DNA from: Phyllobates terribilis
Lineage: Eukaryota
Direction of reading: 5' to 3'
Assembly (NCBI RefSeq): GCF_046119375.1
Contig: NW_027362762.1
Coordinates: 109,802,001 to 109,866,000, forward strand
DNA length: 64,000 bases
Shown here piece by piece: positions 7,759 to 32,573 of this stretch. How positions within the stretch are numbered: position 1 is the stretch's first letter; every line of letters starts with the position of its first letter. A model generated the notes under the pieces. It searched no databases. It was not told the DNA's origin and was given only the letters and a program-made list of their open reading frames with translations. The translations under genes and the position numbers were made by a program.

Positions 7759-7895
7759 CACCCAACCCCTTGTGGCTTGTCCATGTTGCCTGTTTACTTT
7801 TTTGTGTTGCGTTGGGAACTGTCACCCATGTCTGATAACTGATGGCAACATTTCTACGGTTTCTGGAAACCTTAATTTTTCCCTTTTTCTTTAAG

Positions 7896-9454
7896 GCTCC
7901 TGGTTTGAATCAGATGGCCTTCGGGGCTCATTCTGCAGAAGATACCGGAAAATTAATGTACGAGCTGATGCTTTTCATATTGTCATCTGGGAGAGAAGCG
8001 GTGGAAAGTCATTTGAGGAGAATACGCAATTTGTTGCGGCTGAACAAGCTTCAGAGCTTAAGCCAGCAAATGTCTCCATGAAGCCTGAAGATCCTAGCTT
8101 TTCTCCAGTGGGGAGCGCTGAGCTTTCCCAGAGGGTTGCTCCTTCGGTGCAGTCTGTTGATTTAAACACATCAGATCCCCTTGCAGGAATGGAAGGTTAT
8201 GCCGATGATGACGTGATAACTCTGAACCTAGTTGCGATACCCACTGATGTAAATGGCTGTCCTATCGAAACTCCTGCTAATCTTCAGGCAACTGATACTT
8301 GCAGGTCTATCAAGGACCCTAGTCAGGAGGAAGGGACTAGCACTGCTCGCCTCGAAATGTCCACTAATGTGCAGCCAGAGGGTGAAGAAGATGCTACACT
8401 TGCATCAGCTGTCTCCTCGGACTCGAATGCAGAGACTGCCCCCCTCATAAATTGTAGTGTTGAGCGAAGTCCTTTGATACAAAGCCCCTTACATCCAGCA
8501 GGCGAAGCCATTGCAACTAGCACACCCTCTCAGCAACCCTACAACCACGAAAAGACGATAGCTGGCAACTGGATGAATCGATTAATGAGAAAAAATAATT
8601 CTGTTCTAAATTCTCCTCTTCTTTCTGCAAATGGGAAGATGCAAGCACTCAAAGCTCTTCCTCCTCTGAAGACAACGGATTCAAGCGATGCTCCCAAGAA
8701 AGCTCAGAACTTTAATGGCTTTTTAAACCGATCAACAAGTAAAACTGATTTTTCGGCATCTAATATATCTCCATCAAAAATTGCAAGTAAACTGTCCTTT
8801 AATGTTCTGAAAGAAAGGGTAACAGCGGTAGCTAAGCCAGTGGCAATGCCTGCAACTTCAGGCTTTAAGACACCTGCTAGCAATGGCTTAGATTATAGTA
8901 AAATGATAAAAGAAGGGAGCTCATCCAGCGAGGATAAAATTCGTAGACTGAGACTGAAGTTATTGAAAAAGCTAAAGGCCAAGAAAAATGAGCTAGCTAC
9001 ATTAGAAAAGTTAGCAAAAAAGCAGGAGAGTGGCCCCACTGGAGCCCAAGCTAATGGTGCTCCTCATGATGGTTTTAATCGGAAGGAGCATCTACGAGGC
9101 TTTCTACAGGAGCTTCAGGAGCACATAGACAATGCTGATAATGAATCTGTATGCACCATGAGCTCATGCAATTCTTTATGTAGTAGTCCTGGAGATGCCG
9201 AGTTCTTCACAGAACTTTTCTCACCATCTCCTGCTGACAGCCAACCAAATGACAGCAGGTATCTGGAGATGTTGGCTGATGGCTGTGGAATAGCGGCAGG
9301 TGGCGTCCTACATTCTGCCTCGGGAAGTAATTCCTGCCCTACAGTTAAGCTCAACACTTCTGCTGCAGATGGGTCTTTAGGGCGGATGTCAAATTCTACT
9401 GTAGATGTTCTGCGTGAAGACAATGACTATTTTGATTTTGATGATTATTTCTAG
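7896..9454 (+). CDS. uspl1: USPL1 terminal coding exon (catalytic Asp plus long low-complexity C-terminus)
   Basis: ctttttctttaAG acceptor; GSWFESDGLRG..FHIVIWER continues in frame into ORF 8078..9454, stop TAG. Confidence 0.93.
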
Positions 9455-17345: not shown

Positions 17346-17576
17346 AGGGGTATTCCCATCTCAAAGATCCTATTCCAATTTGTAGTAGGTGTAATAATGG
17401 GAATAGCAATTGCCTCCAATTAAAAATGTATAGTTTTTCTGATTCGCTATGTCTCTTGTCTCATGTGCAGGCATTTCAGGACCTTGGGTATCCATGGTTA
17501 CAACCAATAGCAACTAGCTAACTGTCACTATATCGGTGGTCATAACCATGGGTTACCTAAGGTCCTGCAATGCCTG
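17346..17576. mobile_element. T2-type palindromic MITE, left part (continues at 22465-22564 and 34027-34070)
   Basis: TTAA|AGGGGTATTCCCATCTC.. aligns to the intact copy at 55346-55707; interrupted by the LTR element and the hAT. Confidence 0.9.
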
Positions 17577-18741
17577 TGTAGCACCCTGAGGACTCGGCTG
17601 CTACAGGGGTATTGCACCTCAACCCAGAGGTGTGATATTCCACTCCCGGGTAAGGATGGAGTGTGGAACTGAGCTAGTAGGCTGCATGCACTACACACAT
17701 CCCATTTCCGAGGAACAGACCGATGGTACTCCCACTAGAGAAATGTGCAGGTACGACAGTGTCTGTTCCTGGCTGGAGTGGGAGGGGGGTGGAACATCCC
17801 AGTAGTGTAGGGGCAGATAGGGGGAGCAGCCTGGGTAAAGCTAGGAGCTCATTGGGTGCTGGTCACCTGAGCTCACACATAGAGGGAGTATATAAGGTGG
17901 GCACCATCTTAGATCAGGGTCAGTCAGTTGTCGGTCAGTCTGTCTGAGAGCCTGAGAAGCAGAGCAGAGGAGAAGGAAGAGGGACCCAGAGGCGCAGGAA
18001 GAGGGGACCCCAAGAGCCCATAAGAGAGCTAATAGGGTGAAGGGTCGGCAACAGGGTACCGGATCCCAAGCTGGTGGAGGCTACAGCACTAATCCTCAGC
18101 CAGAGACCGGAGGTCGTGGGCAGGATCTGCCACGACCACCCACTAAATCCACCCGGAAGGCAGACCAAGAATAGGGTCAGGGAGCCCAGAGGAGGCTTGA
18201 CCAACAAGAGGCCCGAGGGAGCCGGACTTAGGTGGATCCCTGGTGGGAACGGCCAGAAGAAGGGAGAGTCAGAAAGGAGCTCAGGACCACACTCCGGAGT
18301 TGCCTGGGAGTTGACCGAGTCCAGGACCTGGTGGACGCAGCACGGCTCGGGTGGTCACTGCTGTACACAGTGACCCGAACAACACCAGTAAGTAAAACCC
18401 TGGAACTGCATTTTATGCCTCTGAGTCTCCTTGCTGCACCTTCACAACCACCATCCTCCACGGCTGACCCCCTGAGGCTATACCCCTCCCGTTGGGGGTT
18501 ATACTACCAAAGCTGCACACATACCAACAGCCTCAGCGGACCCTGCTGCAGCGGCGGCCTTTTGACCGCAAATCAACGGGTGGCGTAGTCGACACAAAGA
18601 ACTCTAATAACATCTGTAGGACTGCCACACACTGAGTTTGACACCCTGGGCACGGACCGGGTCACAGCCACTCGGAGACTACAACCCCCATCTGATCCGG
18701 CTCCGGGTATCCCTAACAGCACTGGCCCAGGGGGTGCGTCA
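17577..18741 (+). repeat. 5' LTR (1165 bp)
   Basis: TGTAGCACCC...GGGTGCGTCA; TATA-like TATATAAG near 17888; AGTAAA polyA-like hexamer near 18392. Confidence 0.95.
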
Positions 18742-18745
18742 ACTT

Positions 18746-18763
18746 TGGCGTAGTCGGCAGGAT
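18746..18763 (+). promoter_or_regulatory. Primer binding site for tRNA-Ser (AGA/TGA)
   Basis: TGGCGTAGTCGGCAGGAT is the reverse complement of the vertebrate tRNA-Ser 3' end ..ATCCTGCCGACTACG-CCA; starts 4 nt after the LTR end. Confidence 0.92.
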
Positions 18764-18922
18764 AACGTGCCCGCAACAACCGGGTACTGCGTGCCTGAAG
18801 AAAAGTTCACCGTTACCTCAAAAAGAAGTCTCCCGCCGGTTCCAGAGGGTCCCCGCCAACGGACCCCATCACAGGTCGTTTCCCGCCGGTTGTCCGCCAT
18901 TTGCAGCTTTTTCCCGCCATCC

Positions 18923-20824
18923 ATGGAGTTTCCCGCCACTGGGAGACGATTCCCGCCATTTCCAAAGATTTCCCGCCTTGGAAGAGCGGACGCCATTATG
19001 GGTGTGCCAGAGGGTGGCAAGAGGCCACCTCCCATCGTGGGCCAGGTCGAAGAATGGCGCCAAAAACGGAAACCGCGCCCACCAACAGAGACTGTGATGC
19101 TGGAAGTGTCCATCAGCGTGAGAGAACTGCCTCTGGAACTGAAGTTGCCCCGGGACCACCCTCAATGTGGGCGGAGACAGAACGAGAGAACGAAGATGGG
19201 TGCAGCCTGGAGAAGTCTGGAGAGAGCGCACCCGGAGACAAGACGTCTGGAGGAGAGTCCAGAGAGAGCCTACCCGGAGATGGAGGGAGAGTCAGGCAGC
19301 ACCGACCCAGTGGTCAGGAGCCTGTTGCAGGTCGCCACTCCAGAAGGCCTGCTGGAGATCCAAGCACAGCTCCCCCGAGACCGGGAGTGTGCACAGACCG
19401 CGTTGGAGGGCCTCGCACGGAGGATGGCCCGGGTGCAGCGAGAGACGTTGGCGGAGTGGAGCCGAGAGATGGCCCAGCAGACCGGCACCCGTCAGCGGAG
19501 CACGCCACCTGAGACGAGGAGACAGACCGCCTCTGAGGATGGCGCAGGAGGAATGAAGGCAGGAGACGGCGCCGAGAAGGGAGCTGAACGGACGGAGGCA
19601 GGTAAAGGGGACGTCTCTACCCCGAGCCGGGAAACCGCGTGCCTGCCCCAGCTCCCCGTCGCAGAGCCCGAAATTCCCCCTGCCGTGCCCGTCGCTGCAT
19701 CGTCACCGCCGCCGACTAGGCCTCAACCGGAAACCGCGGCCGCGACCCCTGTGACGTCACACGCCTCGACCTCGAGCGTGGCCAAGCAGGAAATACCACC
19801 GGCCTGGTCGCAAGGCCTAGTACCCCCGGGCGCCGCTATTCCAACAGCGCCCCCACCGGCCTGGCCGCAGGGCCGAGTAACCACGGGCGCCGCCGTTCTT
19901 ACGGTGCCCTTTTCCTTTAGCGTGCCCCAAGCCTGGTCGCAAGGCCTAGTACCCCCGGGCGCCGCTATTCCAACAGCGCCCCCACCAGCCTGGCCGCAGG
20001 GCCGAGTAACCACGGGCGCCGCCGTTCTTACGGTGCCCTTTTCCTTTAGCGTGCCCCAAGCCTGGTCGCAAGGCCTGGTCAACCCGGGCGCCGCTACCAC
20101 CACAGCGCCCATAGCACCTAAAGTACCGCACCTGGGTGAGGACCTGTTGGCCCAGCATACGTGCCCGGATGGGCAGCCCTTCATATGGCCACCGGAGTTT
20201 CACCATCCCCGACTCCGGAAAGAAAGACCCCTAGATGAACCCCTGATTCCGGTTCCGAAGCCCGTCAGGAGGACCCAGCCCCCGCTAGAGGAGGCACAGT
20301 TTGAGTGGGACCCCACCGGAGGAGACCTCATGGGGTTCACTCAGGAGACTCGGGCAGCCGCAGCGGAGCGTGCAGAGTGCTGCCGCCAGCAGCTCGAGGT
20401 CTTCGAGAAGGAGCGGAGAGAGAGGCGGGTCCGGGAACAGCAAGCGCAGATAAGGAGCGCGGAGCAGAAGAGCCGGACCAGGAGGAATCCCCGTGCAGCT
20501 CATGGTCCCCCTTCCACCGGGACTGTGATAAAATTCAACATGCAGCATGGGTGGGGCTTCATTAGAGACCATCAGACCCCCGGCGACGTCTTTGTAACCC
20601 GCAGAGACGTAGAAAGCCATCTGCCGGAGGGACACAGAGGTCGTGACCTGTACGTAGGGGACGAGGTCACCTTCACCCGGCACAAGTGTGCCAAAGGACC
20701 CTACGCCCTCCATGTGCATCGCCTGACGGAGGAGGAGCTGCGGTGTGAGGAGGAGCAAGAGGACCCGGACGGGTCTGAAACTGAAACCAACCAACAAGAA
20801 AGAGCAGGAGGACGCCGTCGTTGA
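18923..20824 (+). CDS. 633-aa LTR-element protein: helical N-term, Pro/Ala/Thr repeats with 2x PTAP, coiled coil, C-terminal cold-shock domain (20516-20725)
   Basis: Uninterrupted frame 18638..20824; first ATG after the PBS at 18923 (true start may be a later ATG); TGTVIKFNMQHGWGFI..DVFVT..VGDEVTF..GPYALHV fits the CSD pattern. Confidence 0.85.
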   Translation: MEFPATGRRFPPFPKISRLGRADAIMGVPEGGKRPPPIVGQVEEWRQKRKPRPPTETVMLEVSISVRELPLELKLPRDHPQCGRRQNERTKMGAAWRSLERAHPETRRLEESPERAYPEMEGESGSTDPVVRSLLQVATPEGLLEIQAQLPRDRECAQTALEGLARRMARVQRETLAEWSREMAQQTGTRQRSTPPETRRQTASEDGAGGMKAGDGAEKGAERTEAGKGDVSTPSRETACLPQLPVAEPEIPPAVPVAASSPPPTRPQPETAAATPVTSHASTSSVAKQEIPPAWSQGLVPPGAAIPTAPPPAWPQGRVTTGAAVLTVPFSFSVPQAWSQGLVPPGAAIPTAPPPAWPQGRVTTGAAVLTVPFSFSVPQAWSQGLVNPGAATTTAPIAPKVPHLGEDLLAQHTCPDGQPFIWPPEFHHPRLRKERPLDEPLIPVPKPVRRTQPPLEEAQFEWDPTGGDLMGFTQETRAAAAERAECCRQQLEVFEKERRERRVREQQAQIRSAEQKSRTRRNPRAAHGPPSTGTVIKFNMQHGWGFIRDHQTPGDVFVTRRDVESHLPEGHRGRDLYVGDEVTFTRHKCAKGPYALHVHRLTEEELRCEEEQEDPDGSETETNQQERAGGRRR

Positions 20825-21269
20825 AGTACGGTAGAGAGAGACTGTACATAGTTACCCGTCAGGGTATAAGAACTGTTCTAGTTAAAATATAGTCCCCGTT
20901 GGGACCAGCCAATTGAACTGAAACCCGTGTGTCCCTATTCCCACTGACCGAGGACTGAGAGCGGTCATTCCTCCCTAATACCTGGCCGAGGACTGAGAGC
21001 GGCCATATTTCCCTTGTATATAGTTGCGCTTCCTAAAGCGCCCCCTACCAGTTTTATAGGGAACTGTTTTATTCCAAGAGAGACTGTCGCACTTTACCCG
21101 GTCACAAGTTGCACCGTGACCGGAGGAACCAGAAACAAGAATGTTATTTATATGAAAAGTTTATTGCTGATATATATATATGATGTTTTCTATGTTTATG
21201 AAAAAAAAAAAAAAATTGTATGTTTTGGATGTTTATATTTTACAGCCCGAGGACGTGCTGTGGTTTACC

Positions 21270-21278
21270 AGGGGGGAA
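21270..21278 (+). promoter_or_regulatory. Polypurine tract
   Basis: AGGGGGGAA immediately before the TG of the 3' LTR, preceded by a Gypsy-like cgaggacg.. motif. Confidence 0.85.
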
Positions 21279-22464
21279 TGTAGCACCCTGAGGATTCGGC
21301 TGCTACAGGGGTATTGCACCTCAACCCAGAGGTGTGATATTCCACTCCCGGGTAAGGATGGAGTGTGGAACTGAGCTAGTAGGCTGCATGCACTACACAC
21401 ATCCCATTTCCGAGGAACAGACCGATGGTACTCCCACTAGAGAAATGTGCAGGTACGACAGTGTCTGTTCCTGGCTGGAGTGGGAGGGGGGTGGAACATC
21501 CCAGTAGTGTAGGGGCAGATAGGGGGAGCAGCCTGGGTAAAGCTAGGAGCTCATTGGGTGCTGGTCACCTGAGCTCACACATAGAGGGAGTATATAAGGT
21601 GGGCACCATCTTAGATCAGGGTCAGTCAGTTGTCGGTCAGTCAGTCTGTGAGACGTCAGTCTGTCTGAGAGCCTGAGAAGCAGAGCAGAGGAGAAGGAAG
21701 AGGGACCCAGAGGCGCAGGAAGAGGGGACCCCAAGAGCCCATAAGAGAGCTAATAGGGTGAAGGGTCGGCAACAGGGTACCGGATCCCAAGCTGGTGGAG
21801 GCTACAGCACTAATCCTCAGCCAGAGACCGGAGGTCGTGGGCAGGATCTGCCACGACCACCCACTAAATCCACCCGGAAGGCAAACCAAGAATAGGGTCA
21901 GGGAACCCAGAGACAAGGGTTTACCAACAAGAGGCCCGAGGGAGCCGGACTTAGGTGGATCCCTGGTGGGAACGGCCAGAAGAAGGGAGAGTCAGAAAGG
22001 AGCTCAGGACCACACTCCGGAGTTGCCTGGGAGTTGACCGAGTCCAGGACCTGGTGGACGCAGCACGGCTCGGGTGGTCACTGCTGTACACAGTGACCCG
22101 AACAACACCAGTAAGTAAAACCCTGGAACTGCATTTTATGCCTCTGAGTCTCCTTGCTGCACCTTCACAACCACCATCCTCCACGGCTGACCCCCTGAGG
22201 CTATACCCCTCCCGTTGGGGGTTATACTACCAAAGCTGCACACATACCAACAGCCTCAGCGGACCCTGCTGCAGCGGCGGCCTTTTGACCGCAAATCAAC
22301 GGGTGGCGTAGTCGACACAAAGAACTCTAATAACATCTGTAGGACTGCCACACACTGAGTTTGAAACCCTGGGCACGGACCGGGTCACAGCCACTCGGAG
22401 ACTACAACCCCCATCTGATCCGGCTCCGGGTATCCCTAACAGCACTGGCCCAGGGGGTGCGTCA
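21279..22464 (+). repeat. 3' LTR (1186 bp)
   Basis: Copy of 17577-18741 with a 19-nt insertion near 21640-21660, a +2-nt divergent patch near 21905-21925 and a few SNPs. Confidence 0.95.
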
Positions 22465-23479
22465 CCTGTACATGAGGAAAGAGACATAGCGATTCAGAAG
22501 AACTACACTACATTTCTAATTGGAGGTATTTGCTATTATTATTCATTATCATTACACCTACTACTAGTGTTGAGCGATACCTTCCGATATCGGGAAATAT
22601 CGGATCGGATTGGATCGGACCGATACCGAAAAAGTATCGGATATCGCCGATTCCGATACCGGAAACCAATGCAAGTCAATGGGACATAAATATCGGAATT
22701 AAAATAAACCCTTTCTTTCCTTGTAGGTTATTTCTACATGAAGGAAAACAACTAAGAATAATGTAGAATGTATTGGGGGAGGTGGGGGAGACAATAAAGG
22801 CATAGAGGTTTAGCCCAGTCAAATGGAATAGCAGGAATTAATATTTTTTTATTATGTTCTGAGTTACGGAAATATTAACTATGTTAAGTATTTTTATATT
22901 TTGTCAGATATTTATGTTTCACTACTTCCATGCTCTTCACCTTCTTTTTTACTTCTCCCACACTTTCTCCTTCATCATCCTCAGCATCTTTTTCATCCAC
23001 TTCTTCTTCACCTTCTTCTTCTTCACCTTCTTCGTATTATTCTTTTTTTTACATTCTTCATATTCTACTTCTTCATCTTCTTCATATTCTTCTTCTTCAT
23101 CATATTCTTATTTGTGACAGGCATTCCTGTAGTTGTTATCTATAAAAGGTTGGACATTACACCTTTCGTTCTGCCCGTCACAAAAGATTTACAACAGGAT
23201 TTGTCCGCGTTCAGTTTGGCCTGCAGCAGCAGGTCTTTTCCAGGGGCACCACGAGGAGGAACGGACTCACCCCCATACACTGCTTAGTCATCTTCTGCTT
23301 ATAATTTAGATATTATCTTTTGCTCTGATTTTTAGTCTTATGCTTAATGTTCTTCCGCTTTTTGTTCTGCAGCTTCTTGTATTTCTGCTTCTTGGTTTTC
23401 TGTCTCTTGTTTTTCTGTATCTTGGTGCTTGTCTTCTCTTCTTTGTCTTCTTGGTCAACTTCTTCAGGGTCATCTTCTT

Positions 23480-28825: not shown

Positions 28826-31800
28826 TTATTCTGGAAGAGGACTGGCAAATTCATGAGAGATCCAGGCCTTGTTCATTTTGAGAAAAGTAAGCCGGTCAAC
28901 GTTATCGGAGGATAGTCGCATGCGACGGTCTGTTAGTACACCACCTGCGGCACTAAAGACGCGTTCCGATAATACACTAGCAGCAGGGCAAGCTAGCACC
29001 TCCAGTGCATACTGACTAAGCTCTGGCCATGTATCCAGCTTACAGACCCAAAACTTGAAGGGAGAAGAGCCGTCTGGGAGTACACTAAGAGGGCAAGACA
29101 TGTAGTCTGTCACCATCTGACGGAAACGTTGCCTCCTGCTGACTGGAGCTGTCTGTGATGGTGTAGACATTTGTGGCGGCGGGGACACAAAACTTTGCCA
29201 CATTTCGGCCATACTGGTCTTGCCTTGTGCTGAGGCGCTGCTTCTGCTCCCTCTTTGTGCAGAGCTTCCTCCACTGCCTCGACGCACTGAGATGCTTTGT
29301 AAAGCACTAGCAGCACTGCTCTCGGTTGGAATGGAGAACATGATGGAATGCACCAGTGCGTCTTGGTACTCCCGCATTTTACGCTCCCGGTTCAATGGTG
29401 TTATGAGGCTTTGTAAGTTGTCCCGGTAGCGAGGATCTAGGAGGGTGGACACCCAATAATCAGCCGTGTTGAGAATGTGGGCGATGCGGCGGTCGTTTCT
29501 GAGGCACTGCAGCATGAAATCAACCATGTGCTGCAGACTGCCAACTGGCCAAGAAACGCTGTCCCCTGCTTGAGGCGTGATCTCTGCCTGCTCTGCATCA
29601 CCCCACCCTCGCTCTAGATACTGACTACTAGAGCATTGTGTACCTCCCTCCTCTGGACAGATGTCTTCCTCATCCATTGACTCCTCCTCATCCTCCTCAC
29701 AAAGTGTCCCCTGCCTAGGCCTTTGTGAGGAACCACATTGCGCAGACTGTAGAGAAGCAGATGGCATTTGTGACTCCTCATCCTCCACCTCTTCCAAAAC
29801 CTCGTCCCTTAGTGCTTGCAGTGTTTTTTCAAGCAGGCAGATAAGGGGGATAGTCATGCTGACTAGTGCATCATCTGCACTCGCCATCCGCGTGGAATAA
29901 TCGAAGGCACGCAAAACGTGGCAAATGTCCTTCATAGAGGCCCACTCAGTGGTGGTGAAGTGTGAACGGCGCGCACTGCGACTTGTTTGCGCCTGCTGCA
30001 GCTGGTACTCCATTACTGCTGCCTGCTGCTCACACAACCTCTCCAACATATGTAACGTTGAATTCCACCTGGTGGGTAGGTCACATATGATGCGATGTTC
30101 CGGAAGACATAATCGGCGCTGCAGAGCTGCAATGCGTGATCTTGCATTGCTGGAACGCCGCAAGTGAGCGCACTCTATGCGGACCTTGTGAAGCAGTGCA
30201 TCAAGATCCGGATAGTCCCTCAAAAAACTCTGCACGACCAAGTTGAGCACATGTGCCAGACATGGGATGTGAGTGAGGTTGCCTAGGCCCAGAGCTGCCA
30301 CCAGATTTCGGCCATTGTCACACACTACCATGCCTGGCTGGAGATTCGCTGGCACAAACCACACGTCACTCTGCTGCTTGATGGCATTCCAGAGCTCCTG
30401 CGCTGTGTGGCTTCGATTCCCCAAAGAAATTAATTTTAATACGGCCTGTTGACGTTTGGCCACGGCTGTGCTCATATCGGTCATCATAACAGGTAACCGT
30501 TCACGGGTCGATGTGGAGGTAGACCGTGACGGCTCCTGCAGCGCTGATTCAGAGGAACTGGAGTATGAGGAGGAGTCAATGTGTACAGACTGGATTCCTG
30601 CAATCCTTGGAGTTGGCAGAACACGTACAGCGCCACTCTCAAGATCTGTACCCGGCTCCACAACATTTACCCAATGGGCAGTGAGGGAAAGGTATCGTCC
30701 CTGTCCATGCTTACTGGTCCACGCATCAGTGGTCAGGTGGACCTTGCTACTGACGGCGTTTTGTAGCGCATGTTTAATTTTTCCCTCCACATGATGTTGC
30801 AGGGCAGGGACGGCTTGCCTGCTGAAATAAAAGCGGCTGGGCACGTTGTATTGTGGGACTGCCAATGCCATAAAGTTACGGAATGTGTCAGTCTCCACCA
30901 GCCTGAATGATAGCATTTCAAGGGCCAGTAGTTTAGCAATGCCAGCATTCAGAGCCTGTGCTCGGGGGTGGTTTGCCGAGTATGGGCGCCTTTTCTCCCA
31001 TGCCTGTGCTAACGATGGCTGTAGACTGGCCTGGGAGTGTGAGGATGACTGGGAAAGTGGTGCTGTGGGTGGAATTACACTGTGTCTCTGTACAACAGTG
31101 CCAGAGATTCTTCCATGGCGATCCTGTGAGGAAGCCGAACCAGCTGTGTGTGAGCTGGAGGAAGAGGCTACAACACGAGCTGAAGAGGTGGTAGGTGGCG
31201 CTGTAGGTTGGCCTAGGTCTTCAGTGTGTTTGTGTAACTCCACCACGTGCTTGGTCCGCACATGTTTCCACATATTTGTGGTATTGAGGTTGCTGACACT
31301 TTTCCCTCTTTTCACCTTCTGATTACACAGCTTGCATTTGACAAAGCAAATGTCATCTGCAACTGTGTCAAAAAAGGACCAGGCACTGCAAGTCTTGGGA
31401 GCGCCCGCTTTGGATTTTGGAAGAGCCATGCTCCTAATGGGTGCCGAAGTGGAGGCTACAGGCAACCAAGTCTGCCCCCTCCCTCTCCCTCCTTTTTGGG
31501 CCGTTCGGGGAATCTCTTCCTCAGAGCTGCTCCCACCACCTTCCTGTCCCTCACGCCATGATGGGTCAAGGACCTCATCATCTACACCACCCTCTTCAAA
31601 CAACTGCTTCTCCTGGGTAGTCTCGACAGCACAGTACGCACCAGAAAGTGGCACCTGAGTCTCATCATCAGATGCGTACTGAGGTGTGCTGCTGACCATA
31701 GGCACTGGCCCACCCGCCTCTTCAGATTCAGAGAGACAAAACGGTTGCGCATCACTGCATACTACCTCTTCTTCAAATTCTCGAATTCTGCTTGGCTGGC

Positions 31801-32218
31801 CCCCTCTTTCCAAGCCAAGAGATTCAGAGAACAGAAGTAGAGATGGCTCCTGTCCAGGGCTCTCTGACTGCCTGGGCAATTTGGCAGGTGGTGAAGAGAC
31901 AGATGGGTGCTCTTCAGTGCTCAGGACCTGAGAGGATCTGGAACTAATTGAAGTCGATGCGTTAGCTGCCATCCATCCGACAACGGCTTCAATTTGGTCC
32001 TCGCGCAGCAGTGGGGTACGGCTAGCTCCTACAAAGCTGCGCATAAAGGACTGTTCCCTGGTAAAACTGGGGGATGCTGAGTCACTGGTGCCCGCAGCAG
32101 GCACAGAATCCCCACGTCCTCTCCCTGCAGGCACAGAATCCTCACGTCCTCTCCCTGCAGAAACTCCACGCCCACGCCCACGACCACGACCACATGCCTT
32201 ACTCCCTGCCTTCTTCAT
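28826..32218 (-). CDS. hAT transposase, 1130 aa (BED zinc finger, RNase H-like DDE, hATC dimerisation domain)
   Basis: Intact ORF; BED AWSFF..CKLC..MWKHVRTKH; LTTDAWTS (D), VCDNGRN (D), CLAHVLNL (CxxH), TRWNST, SERVFSAAG (E). Confidence 0.96.
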   Translation of the reverse strand: MKKAGSKACGRGRGRGRGVSAGRGREDSVPAGRGRGDSVPAAGTSDSASPSFTREQSFMRSFVGASRTPLLREDQIEAVVGWMAANASTSISSRSSQVLSTEEHPSVSSPPAKLPRQSESPGQEPSLLLFSESLGLERGGQPSRIREFEEEVVCSDAQPFCLSESEEAGGPVPMVSSTPQYASDDETQVPLSGAYCAVETTQEKQLFEEGGVDDEVLDPSWREGQEGGGSSSEEEIPRTAQKGGRGRGQTWLPVASTSAPIRSMALPKSKAGAPKTCSAWSFFDTVADDICFVKCKLCNQKVKRGKSVSNLNTTNMWKHVRTKHVVELHKHTEDLGQPTAPPTTSSARVVASSSSSHTAGSASSQDRHGRISGTVVQRHSVIPPTAPLSQSSSHSQASLQPSLAQAWEKRRPYSANHPRAQALNAGIAKLLALEMLSFRLVETDTFRNFMALAVPQYNVPSRFYFSRQAVPALQHHVEGKIKHALQNAVSSKVHLTTDAWTSKHGQGRYLSLTAHWVNVVEPGTDLESGAVRVLPTPRIAGIQSVHIDSSSYSSSSESALQEPSRSTSTSTRERLPVMMTDMSTAVAKRQQAVLKLISLGNRSHTAQELWNAIKQQSDVWFVPANLQPGMVVCDNGRNLVAALGLGNLTHIPCLAHVLNLVVQSFLRDYPDLDALLHKVRIECAHLRRSSNARSRIAALQRRLCLPEHRIICDLPTRWNSTLHMLERLCEQQAAVMEYQLQQAQTSRSARRSHFTTTEWASMKDICHVLRAFDYSTRMASADDALVSMTIPLICLLEKTLQALRDEVLEEVEDEESQMPSASLQSAQCGSSQRPRQGTLCEEDEEESMDEEDICPEEGGTQCSSSQYLERGWGDAEQAEITPQAGDSVSWPVGSLQHMVDFMLQCLRNDRRIAHILNTADYWVSTLLDPRYRDNLQSLITPLNRERKMREYQDALVHSIMFSIPTESSAASALQSISVRRGSGGSSAQRGSRSSASAQGKTSMAEMWQSFVSPPPQMSTPSQTAPVSRRQRFRQMVTDYMSCPLSVLPDGSSPFKFWVCKLDTWPELSQYALEVLACPAASVLSERVFSAAGGVLTDRRMRLSSDNVDRLTFLKMNKAWISHEFASPLPE

Positions 32219-32573
32219 CTTGGTAGACTGATAAAGATAGGCAGAAAAGTACTAAGGGCTTAGTGTGCTTATTCCTGAACAGCTGCTAACAGGTATAAGA
32301 AACACTAATTTTATAAAGTGTGGACTAGACTTTAATATGAGCTAATGTGGCCTACACAACTGTAAAGTGGAGTGTTTGGTGAACTTTATTTAGGTTTTTT
32401 TTGTCACAAAAAGACACTGGATGTGCCTAAAGATGTAATAACGATAGTATCACAAACTTTTTGTAGCTATTACAATGTAGGAAGGTAACCTACAATGCAA
32501 TAGATGAGGCTGCAAAAAATAGGCTAATACTAATCTGGCTGGGGCTGCAGGGCCCAATGCTGCAGAAAGGCTC

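Follow-up and report, generated by a model that had tools for sequence, protein, structure and literature searches.

What use is a host-type RNA-binding protein to a long terminal repeat (LTR) element that has no polymerase? The question is raised by a 4.9-kb element in the genome of the poison frog Phyllobates terribilis (assembly GCF_046119375.1). It occupies positions 17577-22464 of the window, the 64,000-nucleotide stretch that was analysed (contig NW_027362762.1, positions 109,802,001 to 109,866,000, forward strand). Its interior of 2537 bp holds one long open reading frame (ORF), free of stops, which ends in a cold-shock domain (CSD). An earlier sequence-only reading had proposed a non-autonomous family that keeps this ORF under selection and borrows Pol in trans, with the CSD as a nucleocapsid substitute or as an RNA-masking or anti-silencing factor. 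We find a co-resident Ty3/gypsy helper with the same termini. It is highly probable that the element depends on a helper and that the CSD is selected for transposition. A more specific proposal is that we are dealing with a satellite retrotransposon and that its RNA-binding protein works in cis, on the RNA that encodes it; the sequence evidence gives this about an even chance.

A single gene ending in a cold-shock domain

A Pfam scan of the ORF returned the CSD as its sole family (PF00313; residues 532-599, E 1.1e-8; score 35 bits, cut-off 27). The domain is encoded at 20507-20722 (+). AlphaFold2, with an alignment of 32 rows, models it as a five-strand barrel with a pLDDT of about 90 that follows a 45-residue helix, and Foldseek matched this model to CspA (E 3e-7, target TM 0.88) and YB-1. 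The C-terminal CSD of the sequence-only reading is thus confirmed. Reverse transcriptase (RT), RNase H, protease and integrase are absent from the element in the ORF and Pfam scans, which extended to family members, and on this point too the earlier description holds.

The frame is stop-free, as first described, but its length had to be revised. The ATG at 18923, which gives 633 residues, was rejected as the start because that methionine is not retained in other subfamilies. The ATG at 18998 is the conserved start, and its context GCCATTATGG is found in 23/24 copies. The ORF probably begins there and encodes 608 residues (18998-20824 (+)). The likely 5’ leader of about 1.1 kb has 2.5 AUGs, compared with 13 in base shuffles (n=24, after 3 of 27 copies with no TATA match were dropped).

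The encoded protein has several distinct regions. Two short helices and a 39-residue helix form an N-terminal segment (19307-19498 (+)), in which the ratio of nonsynonymous to synonymous substitution rates (dN/dS) is 0.29. The Ala/Pro-rich disordered region carries an in-frame 129-bp tandem duplication (19802-20110 (+)) that is not in most other copies. A conserved WD..GxDLMGF motif and a 45-residue charged helix precede the CSD (20288-20506 (+); dN/dS 0.11, against 0.12 for the CSD itself). The protein ends in a short acidic tail of 33 residues, 12 of them D/E and 5 K/R (20723-20821 (+)). The order of Ala/Pro-rich region, CSD and charged tail had been likened to that of Y-box proteins. Because a helix stands between the Ala/Pro-rich region and the CSD, and because the tail is short and acidic, the likeness is limited to the CSD.

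The sequence-only reading had called for a test of the N-terminal helical part for a capsid fold. No capsid-like helix bundle is seen in the AlphaFold2 model of the whole protein, in which 404 of 608 residues have low confidence (about two thirds under pLDDT 50), and the Foldseek matches listed are CSD folds only. A profile of the N-terminus has no match in the PDB (best E 1.1). The ESM Atlas returned nothing for the N-terminal helix, and its leads for the CSD are all below 0.9. No capsid family matches any of 35 family members, and hhalign gives a probability of 0.2% for the ORF profile (35 rows) against the helper Gag (4 rows). With neither homology to the helper Gag nor a capsid fold, the ORF is, as judged from sequence and model, not Gag, which also sets the element apart from the gag-only (semi-autonomous) class. 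Since the ORF is not Gag and pol is lacking, the element likely borrows Gag as well as Pol. A CCHC knuckle is already present in the helper Gag, so a role of the CSD as nucleocapsid substitute is unlikely, and this part of the sequence-only reading is not supported.

A second frame of 237 residues overlaps the ORF at 18799-19512 (+). It recurs, at 264-289 residues, over the 5’ part of the ORF in several copies and has no Pfam match. One shifted frame over the first 75 codons has a dN/dS of 0.66, similar to that of the main frame, and the overlap therefore probably reflects RNA-level constraint.

Selection on the ORF

Across 41 ORFs that are intact, the CSD and the helix preceding it both have a dN/dS of 0.14. 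The ratio is higher in the N-terminal helix (0.33) and in the N-terminus and low-complexity stretch (0.63), and it reaches 1.8-2.1 when the CSD region is read in shifted frames. When every one of the 35 CSD copies in the sample is used, whether intact or broken, the values are 0.12 for the CSD (0.07-0.18, an interval from codon resampling) and 0.11 for the preceding helix. None of these 35 copies has a stop or frameshift inside the CSD, and 26 keep an intact frame from the start to the CSD. For comparison, dN/dS is 0.04 in the helper RT and 0.19 in the helper Gag. Purifying selection on the pre-CSD helix and the CSD is as strong as on the helper Gag. The proposal of an ORF kept under selection is borne out, and the opposite outcome, a ratio near 1 with most copies disrupted, was looked for and not found.

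The ratio of nonsynonymous to synonymous polymorphism (pN/pS) in the 35 CSD copies is 0.68 for singleton variants and 0.14 for shared variants, which points to selection on the lineages that transpose. Such a contrast would be expected if copies decay once inserted and only lineages with a good protein go on transposing. A product common to thousands of copies would lose selection on its amino acids, and we therefore infer that the protein acts in cis. Some family copies lack the CSD. Four have a clear internal deletion, each with different breakpoints, and a fifth is truncated.

Copy number and the gag-pol helper

The host genome (10.6 Gb) contains 37,587 first-look candidates for a 100-residue CSD query; 144 of the 150 that were scored are 100% identical. 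The exact pattern of the LTR end and primer junction occurs 49,034 times, and a control pattern 0 times. A non-random sample of 80 junctions, the first of 100 listed places and all on one chromosome arm (C1), comprises 35 family copies with the CSD, 5 without it, 38 gag or gag-pol elements and 2 unclassified places. Family and helper thus stand at 40 : 38 of 80, and the CSD ORF and gag-pol never occur in one element (0/80). Scaled from this non-random sample, the genome holds an estimated 21,000 or so interiors with a CSD, which amount to about 1% of its length; the frame is intact in about 16,000 of them.

The helper encodes a PNMA-like Gag (E 1e-4, under the curated cut-off) with a CCHC knuckle (zf-CCHC), followed by protease, RT, RNase H and integrase (PR-RT-RH-IN). 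With this order and no env gene, it belongs to Ty3/gypsy. Helper and window element are alike in the primer site, the leader and the 3’ part of the LTR (~300 bp), with 75% identity over 383 bp. In the window, this stretch covers the likely U5, the LTR end, the primer site and the first leader bases (18444-18805 (+)). The first 61-77 bases after the LTR are 86-93% identical between family and helper. Also common to both are the CCCGCCAT leader repeats, the polypurine tract and a near-identical LTR start; the remainder of the LTR is not.

The integration properties also agree. The target-site duplication (TSD) is 4 bp in 18/19 family copies tested, the remaining one giving no score. Scoring was possible in 3 of 6 helper copies, where the TSDs measure 4, 4 and 5 bp. 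TG is found at positions -6,-5 of the target site in 16/37 family and 20/36 helper copies. Median divergence between paired LTRs is 0.3% in the family (n=37) and 0.5% in the helper (n=19), and both are young. Shared ends, primer site, TSD length, target preference and age together point to mobilisation by the Ty3/gypsy helper. The predicted non-autonomous family is therefore real, with LTRs but no gag or pol in 40 sampled copies, and the autonomous partner that it called for matches it in U5, primer site, leader, polypurine tract and TSD length.

Terminal signals and surroundings

The 5’ LTR occupies 17577-18741 (+) (1165 bp) and the 3’ LTR 21279-22464 (+) (1186 bp). Both start with TGTAG and end with CGTCA, and they differ by 7 substitutions and 2 gaps of 19 and 2 bp. 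The TSD, CCTG, lies on the left at 17573-17576 and on the right at 22465-22468. A TATA-like TATATAA (17889-17895 (+)) is a putative promoter element, and AGTAAA (18391-18396 (+)), found in 24/24 family copies, is the likely poly(A) signal. The primer-binding site TGGCGTAGTCGGCAGGAT (18746-18763 (+)) is complementary at 18/18 positions to a CCA-ended tRNA 3’ end that is present at 36 places in the host genome. The CCCGCCAT-type repeats, which are in the helper leader too, lie at 18828-18979 (+) and are a candidate packaging signal. The polypurine tract AGGGGGGAA (21270-21278 (+)) is as in the helper. The intact LTRs, TSD, primer site and polypurine tract reported earlier are all confirmed.

The assignment of the primer to tRNA-Ser stands less firmly than the 18/18 match. 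Three tRNA-type loci were read. In one of them the anticodon loop has TGA and the variable arm is long, in keeping with Ser; another is called Ala by ARAGORN, and Rfam makes no tRNA call at either of the two submitted. The Ser label is likely, and in part we presume it.

Several observations bear on the primer site. Its core GTGGCGTAGTCG has a second copy inside U5 (18577-18589 and 22300-22312), in the helper as well, possibly a decoy or a second annealing site. Genomic tRNA 3’ fragments ending in CCA (L163-L165) are apparently products of primer read-through by reverse transcription. As described in passages of PMC10886601, elements of the TRIM (terminal-repeat retrotransposon in miniature) type are <1 kb and non-coding, with an LTR segment derived from a small RNA. 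The TRIM/Cassandra/Helenus/Ajax class was ruled out for the present element, which is 4.9 kb long with a selected ORF and has no Rfam match within it at E<=1.

The element was inserted into an older, palindromic element of about 250 bp that resembles a miniature inverted-repeat transposable element, the arms of which remain at 17402-17576 and 22465-22537. About 8 kb upstream, 7895-9454 (+) is a long last coding exon with the end of a Peptidase_C98 domain and a DUF4650, presumably of a USPL1-like gene. A stop-free hAT transposase of 1141 residues, with a BED finger and a dimerisation domain, lies at 28826-32251 (-).

Binding face and origin of the cold-shock domain

The CSD of YB-1 binds single-stranded DNA through its RNA-binding surface, and its binding residues include the stacking residues W65 and H87 (PMC7498358, in the passages available). 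We took equivalent positions from a profile alignment. Those of F74 and F85 are retained in 30/32 rows each. Those of W65 and H87 are lost in 31/32 rows each, and in the window copy they are K and T, respectively. Position Y72 is W in 28/32 rows and in the window copy, and E121 is replaced by an aromatic residue in 30/32 (Y in the window copy). These substitutions suggest a binding face that has been remodelled but retains its aromatic and basic character. The F74/F85 surface likely binds single-stranded RNA. Because W65 and H87 are replaced, its affinity or target may differ.

The evidence on the origin of the domain is divided. A profile of the element CSDs scores best with YBX1/YBX2 (51.7 bits), ahead of CspA (44), LIN28 (20-25), CARHSP1 (19) and CSDE1 (19). 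The two Y-box CSDs of the host score 54 bits with this profile, against 35-46 for bacterial rows, and the longer loop after RNP2 is common to the element CSD and YBX. The element CSD is 31% identical to host YBX, compared with 38% for a bacterial Csp. In three trees of about 75 columns, the second and third of which left out multi-CSD rows, partial LIN28 rows and P0009, the element CSDs form a group of their own, with one metagenomic CspA inside it and apart from YBX. Constraining them with YBX was not rejected by the approximately unbiased (AU) test (p=0.24, on this short alignment). The best profile score agrees with the likeness first noted, but the trees do not join the two groups. A Y-box origin is plausible.

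Two other loci in the host genome (G000) carry CSD genes. At C4:791.48-791.52 Mb, three diverged CSD ORFs lie on one strand, 17-19 kb apart (L133, L166, L168). They were checked as a possible host donor; one ORF is broken, they fall inside the element-type CSD clade, and no LTRs were found around the three. They could be domesticated or segmentally duplicated remnants. At C1:734.436-734.450 Mb (L111-L116), an intronless, partly duplicated copy of what we take to be CSDE1/UNR is broken by LINE-like sequence, and its intron-bearing counterpart is at C2:702.79 Mb.

Related families in the host and in other frogs

Subfamilies of the element reach down to 43-47% protein identity. The genome also contains a second Pol-less CSD family (L173-L175, L177, L181-L199), with unrelated LTRs of about 1030 bp (TGTAATAG..CCTTACA) and the same primer site. 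Its CSD is 34-38% identical to that of the window element and has a dN/dS of 0.12 (n=17). It has 592 junctions, and 14 of the 18 sampled have a CSD match (one of them is a neighbour of the first family as well). One copy, L198, represents a further subfamily. At L179 (2180-5514), a CSD ORF lies between direct repeats of about 620 bp with a different primer-like site, presumably tRNA-Ile-like; this may be a third family with another helper. L131 and L171 are related old elements with a different primer site (TGGCGTCACGAACAGGAT type), which suggests a primer switch.

The nearest match in protein databases, among 3065 candidates, is from Phyllobates terribilis (78%). Nineteen of 150 listed representatives were looked up, and seven are frog proteins, known from protein records alone: Phyllobates, Ranitomeya (3), Anomaloglossus (2) and Bufo bufo. 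The others are one Logan protein of the same type and dinoflagellate, bacterial CspA-family or other CSD proteins; none of the 19 is from fish or another non-frog vertebrate. The Bufo bufo ‘Y-box-binding protein 2-A-like’ XP_040278526.1 (P0129) groups with the element-type CSDs and not with YBX, and by this placement is probably a mis-annotated mobile element. A search of shorter proteins gave 0/253. A search with the alignment profile found just two matches among 8000, both of them own members; longer proteins, where a fused form is possible, were outside that search. Viral contigs yielded one weak CSD match and plasmids one CSD match.

Proposed mechanism and alternatives

We propose that the element, lacking Gag and Pol, would borrow particles, RT and integrase from the co-resident Ty3/gypsy helper. 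It would be transcribed from its own U3, and the CSD protein would be translated from the full-length RNA; an AUG-depleted likely leader ahead of an invariant strong start speaks for this. The protein would bind the element’s own RNA in cis and protect it. The conserved helices may be protein-contact surfaces that deliver this RNA to the helper’s particles, and the step helped could be ribonucleoprotein formation, packaging or priming. Helper RT and integrase would then act on the shared U5, primer site and polypurine tract. Host YB-1 is reported to support the RNA metabolism and virion output of HIV (PMC6040738). We also put forward, tentatively and with less than even confidence, a broader history. 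An old satellite LTR lineage of frogs (poison frogs, probably toads) would have dropped gag and pol and captured a CSD gene instead. As a cis adaptor loading RNA into the helper’s particles, its protein would have let the satellite match the helper’s copy number and fill ~1% of a 10-Gb genome with ~16,000 intact CSD genes.

Several points weigh against a cis-acting protein. The two canonical stacking residues of YB-1 are replaced in nearly every row. CSD-less copies make up 5/40 of the family, and two of them (L032 and L045) look freshly inserted, with 4-bp TSDs and LTRs more than 99.8% identical; if their deletions predate insertion, an RNA that encodes no CSD is able to move, contrary to a strict requirement in cis. 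The 18 sampled junctions of the second family show neither a helper with matching ends nor gag-pol of their own. The pairwise dN/dS values are mutually dependent, with intervals from codon resampling only, and the 80 junctions come from one chromosome arm and were not randomly drawn.

FRGY2/YBX2 mask and store RNA in oocyte messenger ribonucleoproteins. By analogy, the element RNA might be masked or stored in such particles, or shielded from small-RNA silencing and decay, by a protein that never meets the helper’s particle proteins. We consider this unlikely, though likelier than the other alternatives. In its favour, the profile matches YBX1/YBX2 better than CspA or LIN28, expression of Gypsy elements is high in the ova of poison frogs (PMC6278860, in part), and selection in cis would be explained too. 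The long charged tail of the Y-box type is missing, however, and a pre-CSD helix as constrained as the CSD indicates a specific protein partner.

Selection in cis is what a cofactor acting in trans would not readily explain. Such a protein could be shared by the whole helper-satellite system or be a general suppressor of host silencing. Helper and satellite were amplified together, CSD-less copies exist, and a ‘cooperative complex’ has been suggested for wheat Wilma/Sabrina/WHAM in passages of PMC9744471. A protein supplied by thousands of intact copies to all of them would be expected to decay; yet pN/pS of shared variants is low, and no deletion derivative recurs among the four. Selection could persist if few copies are expressed per germ cell. 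On balance we regard a trans-acting cofactor as improbable.

The CSD might instead bind the tRNA primer, or single-stranded DNA, while the element is reverse-transcribed or imported into the nucleus, and not coat genomic RNA. The YB-1 CSD, which binds single-stranded DNA through its RNA-binding surface (PMC7498358, in part), offers the analogy. As a separate explanation this is quite improbable, since it requires prior co-packaging and so becomes a subset of the cis-acting satellite. The proposal that the ORF is a diverged Gag forming its own particles, with the CSD in place of the zinc knuckle, fits the position of the ORF, its upstream helices and its C-terminal nucleic-acid-binding domain, but is largely refuted and very improbable. 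The ORF does not resemble the helper Gag, none of 35 family members matches a capsid family, the model is mostly below pLDDT 50 with CSD folds alone among the listed Foldseek matches, and the helper has an intact CCHC knuckle.

Comparison with known systems

Non-autonomous LTR elements are usually non-coding or retain gag. Here, a non-Gag, host-type RNA-binding protein is kept under selection in at least two families with unrelated LTRs. Our literature search found no CSD-encoding non-autonomous LTR element, in frogs or elsewhere; Repbase, Dfam, supplements and subscription journals were outside its scope, and the family may be listed there by a code name. The main text of two poison-frog genome papers (PMC11152451, PMC6278860) has no relevant passage on ‘cold’ or ‘Y-box’ in the parts searched, which exclude the supplements. 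In D. tinctorius, 39% of repeats are unclassified (PMC11152451, in part), and the family described here puts a name to some of the LTR sequence left unclassified in giant poison-frog genomes. Copies of such elements may also be behind some of the frog gene models that are called ‘Y-box-binding protein-like’.

The closest precedent is in birds. PF00313 CSDs occur in 46 scattered endogenous retroviruses (ERVs), which were found by their RT and in which the CSD position varies (He et al., 2025; PMC12287698, in part). Its authors suggest repeated capture of CSDs that aided proliferation, and the passages seen contain no selection test on these domains. Both cases are vertebrate LTR retroelements with a PF00313 domain. 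Unlike in the bird ERVs, the CSD gene here is the sole gene of a Gag-less, Pol-less Ty3/gypsy dependant with roughly 20,000 copies and a dN/dS of 0.12. The sporadic captures in birds thus gain a testable case for what a CSD does for a retroelement, and for how a parasite competes for its helper’s particles.

In wheat, variants of RLG_Sabrina, with RLG_Wilma as helper, have gag replaced by unrelated ORFs (Wicker et al., PMC9744471, in part). Like the frog element, they are high-copy non-autonomous Gypsy elements that have the terminal motifs alone in common with the helper. The ORFs of Sabrina are short and differ from variant to variant, and their fold is unknown or capsid-like. The frog ORF, by contrast, is one long frame that includes an RNA-binding domain of host type and is retained in several families and frog genera. 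The frog helper resembles Gypsy12_DR/PNMA-type Ty3/gypsy elements (PMC3789554, in part) in its PNMA-like Gag, zf-CCHC and PR-RT-RH-IN, a clade assignment that is a lead only. This likeness is the helper’s alone, the window element being without these genes.

Among cellular proteins, Y-box proteins have a long C-terminal domain of alternating basic and acidic stretches, and in LIN28 the CSD is followed by two CCHC knuckles. The window protein resembles YBX1/YBX2 (FRGY2) and LIN28 in the CSD fold, the RNP1/RNP2 phenylalanines and the longer loop after RNP2. It differs from them in the loss of W65 and H87, in its long pre-CSD helix and in the lack of introns; its 33-residue acidic tail is no Y-box C-terminal domain, and no CCHC knuckles follow its CSD. 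LINE-1 ORF1p and the hepatitis delta antigen, the latter from a helper-dependent satellite, also combine a helical segment with an RNA-binding domain that serves their own RNA. They have no relation to the window protein in sequence or fold, and the likeness is in layout only.

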